64,000 nucleotides of DNA from a bacterium (GTDB taxonomy: Bacteria > UBA8248). The notes beneath the pieces were generated by a model. That model did not search any database. It was not told the origin of the DNA and was given only the letters and a program-made list of their open reading frames with translations. Positions 2,808 through 8,700 of this stretch are shown here, piece after piece. The stretch's first letter is position 1. The number at the start of each line of letters is the position of its first letter. The stretch spans positions 2,144,001 through 2,208,000 of the forward strand of contig OY843592.1 of the NCBI GenBank assembly GCA_963692865.2, in the 5' to 3' direction. The position numbers were made by a program, and so were the translations under genes.

Positions 2808-3407
2808 ATGAGTGAAAGCTCCAACCGTTTTGAAGATGCCTTGCGCCTCATCGATGAAGCGAATTCCGAGGATCCGAATACCGAGAAATTCGAGGGCGGG
2901 AACTACCCCAAAGAGCTTTTGTATTCGATGAGAATGACGAAATGGCTCGAAACCATAGAGCCCGACGCCTCAGAAGCCCTTCGTCTGGCGGTGCGGAGCC
3001 AACACATACGCCGGTGGGAAATTCCTCGCTCGAGTTATTCTCTGGATCGGAAGGGGTATCATCAATGGCGCACCCGCCTGTACGACTATCATGGGGAGAA
3101 GGCCGCCGAGATACTTGGGAAGGCGGGTTACGATGAGGAGACGATAGCCCGCGTGCGGATGCTGCTGAAAAAACAGGGTTTGAAGACCAACCCGGAAACC
3201 CGGACGCTCGAGGACGTCGCCTGCCTGGTGTTTCTGGAGAGCTATTTCTGGGATTTCTCACGCCTGCATGACGAGGAGAAAATCATCGACATCTTGCGGA
3301 AGACTTGGGCAAAAATGTCCCCGCGCGGGCAAGAAGCCGCCAGGGAGATTTCGCTGAACGCGGGCGCGGAGGCGCTGCTGAACCAGGCGCTCGCGCCTGA
3401 AAACTAG
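2808..3407 (+). CDS. DUF4202 family protein
   Basis: IDEANSEDPN, ELLYS.RM, QHIRRWEIPR..Y, LEDVACLVFL, TWAKMS; start placed at MSESS. Confidence 0.8.
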   Translation: MSESSNRFEDALRLIDEANSEDPNTEKFEGGNYPKELLYSMRMTKWLETIEPDASEALRLAVRSQHIRRWEIPRSSYSLDRKGYHQWRTRLYDYHGEKAAEILGKAGYDEETIARVRMLLKKQGLKTNPETRTLEDVACLVFLESYFWDFSRLHDEEKIIDILRKTWAKMSPRGQEAAREISLNAGAEALLNQALAPEN

Positions 3408-3516
3408 CGGAAAACGGCTGTTTTCAAGTAGCCCTGCGCTGCTTTTTCATCTGCTTTCTTGTGGTGTATGATTGGCGCGCAATGTTTCTTTTGGACTCAT
3501 TATCAGGGAGAAAATC

Positions 3517-4176
3517 ATGAACCTCACCATGTGGAACTGCTACGTCTGACCCTACGCCTACAGAGCCATGGAGTGGCTCGTTCGCCTTCAGGAGAAAAGA
3601 AGCGATCTGAAAGTGGACTACAAGGCCTTCGTGCTCGAGCAGGCGAATTTCGGCCCGGCGCGCGGCGAGGACTGGAGGGCCTGGGAGGACAAGACCTTCC
3701 CGAGCCGGGATCTCCCCCCGCATCAGGCGGCCAAGTGCGCGGCTCTTCAGGGCGAGACGCAGTTCGACAAGTACCACGTGGCGCTCCACCGGGCGAGGCA
3801 CAGGGACGGCAAGGACATCACCAGCGAACTGGTCCTGCGCGATATCGCCGTGGAAGTCGGCCTCGACGTCGCCCGCTGGGAGGAGGACATGAAGAGCGGC
3901 GCCACGATTCCCCTCATCGCGCAGGAGCATGAGGACGCGGCGGAGCAGGGCGTCTTCGGCGTTCCCACGCTCGATTTCGGGGAGGGCAAGCCCGTTTTCG
4001 TGAAGCTCGAAGAGGGCGACTGGGAGAACGAGGGCGACGAGCAGGGCCTCCTGGACGCCGTGCGGGCCACATCGGCCGAGCGGCCCTGGCTGCTGGAACT
4101 CAAGACGCCCGAATCCGCCAAGCGCAGTTCCGCCTCGGCGAAAAAGTACGAGAAATACGGCGTGAAGTCGAGGTAA
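3517..4176 (+). CDS. DsbA/FrnE-like thioredoxin-fold oxidoreductase, probable selenoprotein (in-frame TGA 3547-3549)
   Basis: SD AGGGAG 3505-3510, ATG 3517, MNLTMWNCYV-TGA-PYAYRA continuing in frame into ORF 3568..4176 with the GVFGVPT cis-Pro loop; hairpin GAGCCA-TGGAG-TGGCTC at 3563-3579. Confidence 0.85.
3563..3579 (+). promoter_or_regulatory. Candidate bacterial SECIS hairpin
   Basis: Perfect 6-bp stem, loop UGGAG starting 19 nt after the UGA, G at loop position 2. Confidence 0.65.
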
Positions 4177-4203
4177 CCGCCGCAAACGAGAGGTTTCCGC
4201 CTC

Positions 4204-4557
4204 ATGAGCGCCATGAAAGACAAGGCCCACCCCGTCGACCTCACGGTGGACAAGCCCGCCCGCGAGTTTCGCGTCGAGTGGGCGAGCGGGGAGAAGAGCG
4301 CCTACGGCTTCGATTATCTGGCCGCTCTCTGCCCGTGCGCGAATTGCAAGGAGGAGCGCAAGGCGCGCGAGAAGAACCCCCTCGCCGTCCTCTCGGGGCC
4401 GAGTGGGCCGACTGAGCTTGAAAACGTGGAGATGGTGGGACGCTACGCCCTCAACTTCATCTGGCGGGGCGGGTGCGGCGCCGGCATCTATTCGTTCGAT
4501 TATCTCTACGAAATCGCCCCCGGGCGCGCCGAAAGTTCAGGGGAAGGAGAGGGCTGA
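4204..4557 (+). CDS. DUF971 / gamma-butyrobetaine hydroxylase N-terminal-like protein
   Basis: LCPCANC, VGRYAL..W, GIYSFDYL. Confidence 0.85.
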   Translation: MSAMKDKAHPVDLTVDKPAREFRVEWASGEKSAYGFDYLAALCPCANCKEERKAREKNPLAVLSGPSGPTELENVEMVGRYALNFIWRGGCGAGIYSFDYLYEIAPGRAESSGEGEG

Positions 4558-4560
4558 ACC

Positions 4561-4704
4561 TTGGAGACCGATGCGCCGAAGCCGATGGATGAAAAGCATG
4601 AAACCCCGCCGGCGCAGGCCGCCTGCCCCACGTGAGTGAGCGGGTGGTTCCACGCCGTGGCGCGGGTTTTGGGCTGGATGAAGAGGAAGGTTCTGAAACC
4701 CTGA
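4561..4704 (+). CDS. Candidate 47-aa small selenoprotein with a CxxU motif
   Basis: TTG 4 nt after the DUF971 stop, purine-rich SD; METDAPKPMDEKHETPPAQAACPT-TGA(4633)-VSGWFHAVARVLGWMKRKVLKP*; hairpin 4649-4666. Confidence 0.5.
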
Positions 4705-4707
4705 AAC

Positions 4708-5070
4708 CTAGCGGTTGATGAGCAGGTTGGCGCCCGCGGCTATCACCGCCACGCCCACGATTCTCTTGAGCGTCAGCGCCGGGAAGTTCTGGAGCAGATG
4801 GGCCCCGACGGCGCCGCCGACGATGGCCCCGACGCTCAGGTACGCCGCATGGTTCCAGACGATGAGCCCGCCCCGCAAGTTCTCGAACGAGGCGACCAGC
4901 GAGTTGAACAGGTAGGCGAGAATCGAGACCGCCACCGCCTGCTGCGGCGTGAGCGCGGGGATGAGGAACAGCGTCGGCACCACGATGATGCCCCAGCCCA
5001 CGCCGGTGGCCGCGTTCAAGGTGCCCGCGATGGCGCCCAGAATCAAAAGTCCCGCCCCCATCCAGTCCAA
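4708..5070 (-). CDS. TauE/SafE (TSUP) sulfite exporter family, half-size
   Basis: GTLNAATGVGWGIIVVPTL, QAVAVS, GAIVGGAVGA; hydrophobic; GGAGG SD before TTG 5070. Confidence 0.8.
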   Translation of the reverse strand: MDWMGAGLLILGAIAGTLNAATGVGWGIIVVPTLFLIPALTPQQAVAVSILAYLFNSLVASFENLRGGLIVWNHAAYLSVGAIVGGAVGAHLLQNFPALTLKRIVGVAVIAAGANLLINR

Positions 5071-5123
5071 AACAGCCTCCTTTTCAGATAACGCCTTTAT
5101 TTTCAATCAGTTGAATTTTCAGA

Positions 5124-5179
5124 AATTTATCGAAAAACGTCGTGAATTTATACATATTTATCCAATTTTTCAGGAATTC
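5124..5179 (+). repeat. AT-rich 56-bp block, inverted copy at 59777-59832
   Basis: AATTTATCGAAAAACGTCGTGAATTTAT...TTCAGGAATTC, 5 mismatches between copies by manual alignment. Confidence 0.85.
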
Positions 5180-5547
5180 CGCTGGGCTGCCTGGCGCTCG
5201 CGGGCTTCGCCCGGAACCCCCCGCCGGGCGCTTCCTCGTCCGCTCCTGACGCCTTCCCGAGAGCGCCGCCGCGGAAACCCCTCTCCGGAACGCCCGGCGC
5301 GGATGCTCCCCGCGGGCGTCCTCGTATTCTCGCCGCTTCGCCTCATCACCCGTCCTCCCGATGCTCTCCCGAAAACGCCCCCGCCCGCAAGCCCGGAACC
5401 CGGCCCGGACGGCGGGCCCCGGCAGACAGGGTAGCGAACCCCGCCCCCCGCGCCAAACGCGCAAATGCGGGGAAATGCGCGGGCGGTGGGGCCGAGCCCC
5501 GGCGATGGGCGAGCGTTTACCAGAGGGGAAGAGGAGGAATCCGTCAT

Positions 5548-6869
5548 GCAAATCGCAATGAACCCGCAGGGGCCGTTCGCGAACGGCCCTCCCCGGTGGA
5601 GAAACGGGCGCTTCACGAAGCGCCCCTACGGTCGTCTTTCAAGAGGATACTGTAGGGGTCGCATATCATGCGACCCGGCTTTTTCGTCCCTCCGGCGATG
5701 GGCCGCATGATATGTCAGACATATATGTCTGACCTACGGCGGGATCCCGACCGGCCTGCGAGGGTTTTTTCAACAACCCCGTATGCGGCCCCTGCACACC
5801 CCCTCGCCTGCCTACCGTAGGGGCGGACCCGTGTGTCCGCCCGTCGGTCCGATACAGGACAGGCGCGGAGGCCTCGGACAGGCGCAGGAGCGCCTGTCTC
5901 TACAAAACCTCGCAAATCGCAATGAACCCGCAGGGGCCGTTCGCGAACGGCCCTCCCCGGTGGAGAAACGGGCGCTTCACGAAGCGCCCCTACGGTCGTC
6001 TTTCAAGGGGATACTGTAGGGGTCGCATATCATGCGGCCCTCATATCGAACGGCGATGGGCCGCATATTATGTCAGACATATATGTCTGACATACGGCGG
6101 GATCCCGACCGGGCCTGCGAGGGTTTTTTCAACAACCCCGTATGCGGCCCCTGCACACCCCCTCGCCTGCCTACCGTAGGGGCGGACCCGTGTGTCCGCC
6201 CGTCGGTCCGATACAGGACAGGCGCGGAGATCTCGGACAGGCGCAGGAGCGCCTGTCTCTACAAAGCCTCGCAAATCGCAATGAACCCGCAGGGGCCGTT
6301 CGCGAACGGTCCTCCCCGGTGGAGAAACGGGCGCTTCACGAAGCGCCCCTACGGTCGTCTTTCAAGAGGATACTGTAGGGGTCGCATATCATGCGACCCG
6401 GCTTTTTCGTCCCTCCGGCGATGGGCCGCATGGTATGTCAGACATATATGTCTGACATACGGCGGGATCCCGACCGGGCCTGCGAGGGTTTTTTCAACAA
6501 CCCCGTATGCGGCCCCTGCACACCCCTCGCCTGCCTACTGTAGGGGCGGACCCGTGTGTCCGCCCGTCGGTCCGATACAGGGCAGGCGCGGAGGCCTCGG
6601 ACAGGCGCAGGAGCGCCTGTCTCTACAAAGCCTCGCAAATCGTAATGAAACCGCAGGGGCCGTTCGCGAACGGCCCTCCCCGGTGGAGAAACGGGCGCTT
6701 CACGAAGCGCCCCTACAGTCGTCTTTCAAGAGGATACTGTAGGGGTCGCATATCATGCGGCCCTCATATCGAACGGCGATGGGCCGCATGATATGTCAGA
6801 CATATATGTCTGACCTACGGCGGGATCCCGACCGGGCCTGCGAGGGTTTTTTCAACAACCCCGTATGCG
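5548..6869. repeat. Tandem array of about 3.6 composite REP-containing units (364/359/364 bp plus partial)
   Basis: Unit start GCAAATCG(C/T)AATGAA at 5548, 5912, 6271, 6635; each unit carries several GTAG/CTAC-tailed palindromes and a TTTTTCAACAACCCC end. Confidence 0.97.
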
Positions 6870-8029: not shown

Positions 8030-8700
8030 CGAACCCGACCGGGGAGGGGGTGTTGAAAAAGCCGGAGAGAGACAATTTGTTTGTAGGTGACAACCTCTCC
8101 CTGGGGTTGTCCCACACATACCATGCGACCCTGATTTTCGTCCCTCCACAACGGGCCGCATGATATGCGGCCCCTACATACAAAAACCGTTCCTCCCCGG
8201 TCGCGTAAAACACTCGTTCATCAGGACTTTTTCAACAGCCCCGGGGAATGAGGGTTCGACGCGAGCGGGGGTGGTTGTTGAAAAACCCTGATTTCGCGAT
8301 TCGGCGAATGCAACCGACCGGGGAAGGGGGGTTCGACGGTTTTGATCGTCATTCCGGTGTCGGAGCCGACCGCGGAGGGAGGGTTCGACGGAATCCAGAG
8401 CCGATGTGAATTTCGAGCCGCAGGACGACCATAAAAAACAAGAATGCGAAAAGCCAAATTCAAAAGCAAAGTCCCTGGATTCCGGCTTTCGCCGGAATGA
8501 CGGCGTGCAATCTCGATTGCAGGGGCCGTTCGAGAACGGCCCTTGTCCGGAGAAGAAACGGGCGCTTCCCGAAGCGCCCCTACATTTCGTTTTTGTATGT
8601 CAGACATATATGTCCGACATACCATGCGACCCTGATTTTCGTCCCTCCACAACGGGCCGCATGATATGCGGCCCCTACGGATCCCCCTGTTCCCGGCCCG
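8030..8700. mobile_element. MITE/REP cluster
   Basis: GGGGGTGTTGAAAAA...TTTTTCAACAGCCCC element (about 8046-8242) similar to 45699-45880; GGATTCCGGCTTTCGCCGGAATGAC palindrome; several CTAC-tailed palindromes. Confidence 0.85.

Follow-up and report, generated by a model that had tools for sequence, protein, structure and literature searches.

With high probability, the 47-codon micro-ORF which follows a DUF971 gene in the window (the whole stretch of 64,000 nucleotides that was analysed, from a genome of the UBA8248 lineage) codes for a real and so far uncatalogued selenopeptide. It would very probably represent a new family of micro-selenoproteins, of a known general kind and with a narrow distribution: among 51 genomes of the phylum, 33 from six genera and two families keep the gene, and in all 33 it stands third in the order DsbA-like gene, DUF971 gene, micro-ORF. 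Its middle codon resembles a stop, and the gene is therefore absent from annotation; small ORFs split by a UGA are doubly invisible to gene finding. Current selenoprotein finders retain new candidates only when these have Cys homologues, and a family which is well conserved but has no detectable Cys counterpart marks a blind spot. Limits of the finding are that it concerns one small uncultured phylum only and that the gene is dispensable in some lineages.

Position and conservation of the micro-ORF

The start codon TTG at 4561 lies 3 nt past the DUF971 stop, the in-frame TGA (4633-4635) is codon 25, and the terminal stop (4702-4704) is 3 nt short of the convergent tauE stop at 4708; position, translation and both gaps were as described in the original prediction (Table 1). 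The source genome (G000) contains 173 micro-frames of the same shape (start, CxxU, stop), 22 of them with a Shine-Dalgarno-like 4-mer. The evidence from this single genome is thus within chance, and the case rests on comparison between genomes.

Table 1. Features of the cassette region (window positions; the last row refers to loci of other genomes)
Feature	Position	Strand	Basis or remark
Candidate promoter, sigma-70-like, upstream of the cassette	3444..3472	+	consensus match only
Gene 1, DsbA/FrnE-like cytoplasmic selenoprotein	3517..4176	+	C-Y-V-U-P-Y-A, UGA 3547-3549; Pfam DSBA E 5e-18
SECIS-like hairpin of gene 1	3563..3579	+	minimum-energy fold; passes rough bSECIS model, -10.2 kcal/mol
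Gene 2, DUF971 / GBBH-like_N, CxCxxC	4204..4557	+	PF06155 E 3e-17; alignment; PDB 3luu
Purine-rich Shine-Dalgarno-like stretch within the DUF971 3' end	4540..4553	+	sequence; similar stretch before the start in relatives
Gene 3, putative micro-selenoprotein	4561..4704	+	47 aa; homologues, alignment, predicted model
UGA, probable selenocysteine codon	4633..4635	+	TGA in 33/33 homologues and 7/7 cassette-linked metagenome matches
SECIS-like hairpin of gene 3	4649..4666	+	stem 4651-4655/4662-4666, 6-nt loop 4656-4661, invariant GU 4657-4658
Convergent half-length TauE/TSUP gene (~120 aa)	4708..5070	-	PF01925 positions 1-110 of 237
Hydrophobic single-helix ORFs	L080 ~4330-4440, L084 ~4750-4860	-	approximate coordinates

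That the micro-ORF fills the gap before tauE almost exactly, as had been pointed out, turned out to be a coincidence, since most relatives of the same genus have 90-140 extra nt there, including a terminator-like hairpin. Compared with most of these genomes, G000 is without about 130 nt, among them the shared hairpin (window 4695-4710); this local deletion accounts for the KP-stop ending as well as for the tight fit, and the cassette and tauE now converge without an obvious terminator. The tauE gene is not a constant part of the cassette, other genes being found at the same place in other genera. In G026, a full-length TauE gene follows the DsbA-like selenoprotein gene directly and in the same direction (L083:4128-4979), which is a second link of this enzyme to TauE. 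Further along the window (~5550-6800 and 8220-8650) an array of repeated and inverted non-coding elements, a few hundred bases each, was seen through recurring ORF translations.

Homologues were accepted with a profile from 21 members at E <= 4.6e-6 (next best 0.005, among the 51 genomes). Each of the 33 matches has exactly one TGA, with one copy per genome; the genomes compared are kin and not independent samples. A more diverse profile returned the same 33 genomes and none further, a result which is partly circular, since the profile had been built from those 33. Complete homologues comprise 38-71 aa, and the motif is CPTU in 30, CSTU, CHFU and WPTU in one each, i.e., 32 times CxxU and once WxxU. 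The exceptional WPTU homologue (G009, L085:3499-3612, + strand), with Trp for Cys, a short N-terminus and a hairpin 6 nt further off, is either a decaying gene or a Sec-only variant. A second TGA match in G015 (E 0.002) was weak and without the motif, and was rejected. In 18 genomes of the source genus the start codon is TTG, ATG or GTG (9, 5 and 4 cases) at the same position.

By the Nei-Gojobori method, dN/dS of the micro-ORF in these 18 genomes was 0.52 before the UGA and 0.58 after it (0.38 beyond the hairpin), as against 0.95 and 1.56 when the part after the UGA was read in shifted frames; the two neighbour genes gave 0.05-0.06. For 12 genomes of other genera, the values were 0.41 in frame versus 0.49 and 2.14 in shifted frames. 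Selection on the peptide is thus real, though loose. No stop interrupts the shifted +2 frame over 17 codons in any of the 33 genomes, so that an open frame by itself proves little.

The original prediction depended on conservation past the TGA and on a host which is able to insert selenocysteine. Frame and sequence past the TGA are kept in the 33 genomes, and selA, selB, selD and tRNA-Sec were all found in the source genome, where selD itself has an in-frame TGA. Across the phylum, selA was above the cut-off in 49 of 51 genomes, the two misses being genomes of 67% and 79% completeness, and BSepDB places three UBA8248 genomes in its top ten for selenoprotein number, with 48-54 genes (PMC13326102, Table 2). 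The two equal-scoring tRNA-Sec matches of G000 on different contigs (G000:C1:1207504-1207596 and G000:C4:29719-29811) may stem from a duplicated contig; the contamination estimate is 6.7%.

In G000 the DUF971 stop is a TGA in frame with the micro-ORF, as would be expected of a read-through extension of DUF971. This reading is almost certainly wrong and is refuted as a general mechanism by frame and stop-codon counts: the two genes are out of frame in 10 of the 33 genomes, and among the 23 with both in frame, 9 end DUF971 with TAA or TAG.

A metagenome DNA pattern which allowed TGA, TGC or TGT, and which covered one spacing only (the form of the source genus lies outside it), gave 42 matches. 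Seven were true, all with TGA and all beside DsbA-DUF971; the remaining 35 were without cassette context and were judged to be chance. A Cys form was not found in the 51 genomes, three protein-library searches or the metagenome pattern scan; with a query as short as this one, such searches have little power to detect distant relatives. RNA runs contained only relatives, at small word shares (0.04-0.10). Of four runs examined, three gave no coverage of the micro-ORF, from which nothing follows; it was covered in a sponge metatranscriptome (run X5), where a relative about 90% identical yielded a 949-nt contig over DsbA and DUF971 and a second contig of 322 nt with the CPT-UGA region and 239 further letters upstream. 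These contigs lend weak support to expression of the micro-ORF; carry-over of DNA is possible.

The hairpin and other readings of the UGA

The predicted hairpin at 4649-4666 is present, and the distance from UGA to loop is 20 nt, compared with 19 nt in the DsbA-like gene. Covariation had been suggested as a check: the hairpin is conserved, and the register which covaries better has a loop of 6 nt instead of 4 nt. From an alignment of 29 sequences (4 of the 33 were left out), RNAalifold derived a stem of 5 pairs and a 6-nt loop, with G as second and U as third loop letter in 29 of 29. In this register 18 cells were changed on both sides, versus 7.2 +/- 2.0 in shuffles; the 4-nt-loop register reached 86% pairing, but 10 such cells versus 9.3 +/- 2.1. 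On the tree, this covariation comes down to roughly one or two events, and the loop GU also belongs to a Val codon, so that this result is suggestive only.

According to the bSECIS model given in PMC13188914, the loop has 3-9 nt with a G within its first two nucleotides, the spacing is 16-37 nt and the minimum free energy <= -7.5; the spacing of 20-26 nt in the homologues and their loop G agree with it. A rough energy version of this model was passed by 25 of the 33 homologues, several of them (including G000) through another hairpin, and by 134 of 400 random CxxU-like sites; with 34% of random sites passing, the hairpin alone is weak evidence. The 48-nt segment which was folded gained no stability over shuffled sequences (z +1.1), and its structure of lowest energy differs from the hairpin predicted originally.

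Constraint on the nucleotides is nevertheless apparent. Three four-fold codons in the hairpin (+7 to +9) showed zero synonymous changes in 18 of 18 same-genus sequences, and pS was 0.17 in the hairpin versus 0.27-0.29 in neighbour genes. This would also be expected if the UGA were an ordinary stop, with a 24-residue peptide or none being made and the conserved stretch downstream acting as an RNA element of the 3' UTR; the lack of a Cys homologue and the unremarkable hairpin point in the same direction. We consider this very improbable, since a true stop would drift to TAA or TAG as both neighbouring stops do: the TGA is unchanged in 33 of 33 genomes, whereas the DUF971 stop is TGA, TAA or TAG in 21, 7 and 5 genomes, and the terminal stop of the micro-ORF in 11, 5 and 16 (one is cut by a contig end). 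In addition, the distance from UGA to hairpin changes by 0, +3 or +6 nt, i.e., by multiples of three, cationic and Trp residues are kept beyond the hairpin, where dN/dS is lowest within the micro-ORF, and Rfam gave no match for the micro-ORF region.

The UGA could also serve as a selenium sensor, with read-through switching between a 24-residue soluble form and a membrane-bound form, or with attenuation downstream. All of the predicted membrane-binding sequence does lie after the UGA, and a loose scan detected a terminator-like hairpin ~5-110 nt downstream of the micro-ORF in 26 of 33 genomes. Such a sensor appears improbable: the micro-ORF is the last gene of its unit, G000 has kept the ORF without the terminator, and the next gene varies (TauE, integrase or M16 peptidase, often convergent; RidA or Usp co-oriented elsewhere), so that there is no common regulated target.

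Cassette, peptide layout and possible function

The promoter candidate upstream of the cassette is the sole promoter-like site in 3300-5300 (shuffle mean 0.2). Between DUF971 and the micro-ORF the gap is -4 to +36 nt in the 33 genomes. The DsbA-DUF971 pair occurs in 42 genomes, 33 with the micro-ORF, 8 without it and one in which a contig end cuts within the likely start; the DsbA motif is unchanged in the 6 inspected of those 8. In a midpoint-rooted DsbA tree of 47 rows (G023, G027 and G031 are absent from it), the 8 genomes form three supported clades among holders of the micro-ORF, and G025, from the sister family, is a holder as well. The simplest reading would be an ancestral gene which was lost three times, and comparison showed the cassette to be, as far as sequences tell, ancestral to two families of one order. 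The DsbA-like gene occurs without the micro-ORF in G026 and in seven f4 genomes; in another order, DsbA-like and DUF971 genes are unlinked, and a profile search found no micro-ORF.

At the site of one loss (G001, L088:5240-8029, + strand) an MmeI-type restriction-modification gene is present, with a similar gene start in G007. Two of four inspected genomes of the other order possess a hydrophobic single-helix ORF of 31-33 codons after the DsbA-like gene, without Cys or Sec, which may be a membrane micro-protein of analogous type. Several genera of the family, though not all, share a sulfite reductase locus upstream of the cassette and LeuC/LeuD-like aconitase genes downstream, which may be plain synteny.

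Gene 1 has full-length orthologues in 49 of 51 genomes, all 49 with the in-frame TGA; public records hold only a 202-aa piece which starts after the UGA. In alignments, the Sec falls on the single Cys of homologues with D-F-L-C-P-W-A and of PDB 7dk9, and a Cys stands at the position held by Asp in homologues. A resolving Cys at +3 (UPYA) is lacking, and so is a C-terminal Cys tail, any Cys in the last 40 residues being present in one of 119 homologues. There is no signal peptide, and the protein looks cytoplasmic. Gene 2 has a Cys where other DUF971 proteins have a His ligand, resulting in a four-Cys site, irrespective of whether the micro-ORF is present. A second DUF971 copy, directly followed by a Rieske ferredoxin gene, was noticed in G023 (L109:191-864, + strand), and a second, frameshifted partial copy together with a second tauE copy lies beside the cassette of G019 (L037:3408-3967).

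The 47-aa peptide consists of a variable, acidic and Pro-rich tether (residues 1-21), the motif C-P-T-U (22-25) and a hydrophobic, then cationic amphipathic helix to about residue 45. This layout, anticipated as a variable low-complexity N-terminus, CxxU and an amphipathic cationic helix, holds over the homologues: in the 33 sequences the N-terminal part comprises 9-39 residues, is freely variable in length and often acidic, and after the Sec a brief hydrophobic segment precedes a basic one, in which a Trp is nearly invariant. The charge after the Sec is +2 to +7, with one acidic residue over all 33 sequences. The best Kyte-Doolittle means over 19 residues (0.86-1.47) are under the usual transmembrane values, which favours an in-plane helix. 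AlphaFold gave a single helix of residues 23-45 at low confidence (mean pLDDT 63), and only 8 of the 33 sequences had a hydrophobic moment above that of shuffles (p<0.05). The helix is probably oriented in-plane at the inner membrane face, with a disordered tether at its N-terminus.

By analogy, the peptide might be a membrane-tethered CxxU redox arm which recycles the neighbouring DsbA-like enzyme; we favour this reading tentatively. SelB would read the UGA as selenocysteine, yielding a peptide of 38-71 aa, whose C-x-x-U pair would cycle between thiol/selenol and selenenylsulfide. As a detached accessory arm it would trade electrons with the co-encoded DsbA/FrnE-like selenoenzyme and bring the chemistry of the latter to the membrane, plausibly for the repair of thiols or of sulfur/selenium adducts, which would serve the handling of metals or Fe-S by DUF971. 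In FrnE of Deinococcus radiodurans, the CxxxxC tail at the C-terminus extends to the active site of a second molecule and assists in its regeneration (PMC8945050, section 2.4); this precedent, together with the absence of a tail and of the +3 Cys in gene 1, was counted in favour of the redox arm. Against it, the three losses and the situation in the other order indicate that the DsbA-like enzyme works without the peptide, and the upstream Cys of gene 1 (C-Y-V-U) could resolve its Sec unaided. The weak constraint on the peptide, the low pLDDT and the lack of a Cys homologue also count against this explanation. That one fold-less, Sec-only peptide without a Cys counterpart should combine a Sec switch, a disordered tether, a membrane anchor and a recycling arm for a second selenoenzyme is conceivable, if doubtful.

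Alternatively, Cys and Sec of a real selenopeptide could ligate metal or Fe-S, jointly with DUF971 or with a second copy of the peptide, and pass metal or cluster on at the membrane. Translational coupling to DUF971 (as judged from the gap), the CxCxxC of the latter and the fusion of DUF971 to the Fe-S carrier HCF101 (PMC7980591, where the function of DUF971 is called elusive) would agree with such a role, as would the sulfite reductase and aconitase genes, both of 4Fe-4S enzymes, which flank the cassette in several genera; zinc-ribbon and rubredoxin matches were only faint (E 0.01-0.1, in 1-2 of 21 members). It is unlikely all the same, since a single CxxU supplies two ligands only and in G009 UGA and hairpin persist while Trp replaces the Cys. 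In G025 the micro-ORF is present even though DUF971 there keeps a C-terminal CPCxxC and the His ligand, and the same four-Cys DUF971 is found in genomes without the micro-ORF; the peptide is thus no substitute for a missing ligand set. As G025 has both, supply in trans of the missing C-terminal CxxC of DUF971 was rejected.

A real selenopeptide might, on the other hand, act alone at the membrane as a scavenger of peroxides or thiols, or as a selenium sink, being co-expressed with its neighbours and not partnered. Loose constraint and repeated loss would suit such an accessory role, and the lineage ranks with those which have the most selenoproteins (BSepDB, Table 2). This appears distinctly unlikely for a gene which is never found away from the cassette and keeps a strict position, as one copy per genome, in 33 of 33 cases.

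Two further candidates were dismissed. A duplicated fragment of the DsbA active site was not supported, there being no similarity to the neighbouring DsbA (probability 0.9%). A substitute for DsbB was considered as well; DsbB was not found in G000, but its absence says little, since the partner without a signal peptide looks cytoplasmic.

If the Sec-only recycling arm is true, a two-selenoprotein relay would be at hand, and with it a sign of a class of Sec-only micro-proteins unseen by searches for Cys/Sec pairs. The micro-ORF gives a handle on two poorly understood groups, the single-nucleophile DsbA-like proteins and DUF971. At this length the peptide can be synthesised with Sec, so that redox potential, membrane binding and partner could be tested without culture of the host.

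Family searches and comparison with known systems

No known selenoprotein family had been recognised in the peptide at the outset, which was borne out by Pfam and NCBIfam (no match with 21 diverse members) and by a 2026 catalogue, none of whose 119 families describes such a peptide. The best match among PDB sequences had E 0.43. A profile search of 1.84 billion representatives gave 6 matches, of which five were long repeat proteins aligned to no more than part of the profile, and the sixth was a true member; in P0003, the only full-length member in the protein library, the gene caller had read the TGA as Trp. Word-indexed searches gave no match at near lengths and, at longer lengths, 4 chance-like ones among the 8000 candidates scored. 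In the literature search no paper was found which joins a selenoprotein with DUF971 or treats such a small-ORF selenopeptide; Haft and Tolstoy 2025, Deng et al. 2026, the contents of BSepDB and supplements were outside this search and could list the family. All known selenoprotein families are said to have Cys homologues, and the filter of deep-Sep, according to its authors, drops selenoproteins without them (PMC12013277); a filter of this type would explain why the peptide is uncatalogued.

With regard to thioredoxin folds (SelW/Rdx, Trx, Grx, DsbA), no HMM matched the peptide and the predicted model is one helix; the AhpD/CMD domain gave no match either. A selenobacteriocin or other RiPP is not indicated, as there was no TIGR04081 match, one RiPP match at chance level (E 0.28, 1 of 21 members) and no maturase among the 66 neighbouring ORFs scanned. 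VhuU, KCU-star/DUF466 (NF033934), selenobacteriocin (TIGR04081) and the dual-CXXC small protein (NF041197) are short Sec products which gene callers miss. They have other motifs (UxxC, CU, SGUG, RxU), and none of their models matched the peptide. The putative mercuric transport selenoprotein (PF02411, C/SxxU) shares a CxxU beside hydrophobic sequence; the MerT-like model did not match, and the peptide has no full transmembrane segment.

The closest general kind are the CxxU selenoproteins which depend on SelB and bSECIS (SelW-like PF10262, AhpD/CMD-like, GrdA, DUF1858, CC/Se motif; Table 1 of PMC13188914). Shared features are the in-frame UGA, the CxxU, a Sec-using host and a candidate SECIS-like hairpin, placed 16-37 nt downstream and with G followed by U early in its loop; the peptide differs in having no folded domain or model match, since it consists of tether, motif and one helix, and no Cys homologue was found. 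Gene 1, for its part, resembles the catalogued DsbA-like protein form 2 (DxxUP; PF01323) in its nucleophilic Sec followed by Pro and its PF01323 match, and differs by Cys for Asp (CxxUP); the table row of that form mentions neither the micro-ORF nor DUF971. From the FrnE tail of D. radiodurans (PMC8945050, section 2.4), to which no sequence homology was found, the peptide differs as a separate gene with Sec, CxxU spacing and a predicted membrane helix. The likeness would be one of function only: in both cases a flexible dithiol-type arm could act in trans on a cytoplasmic enzyme of the DsbA family.
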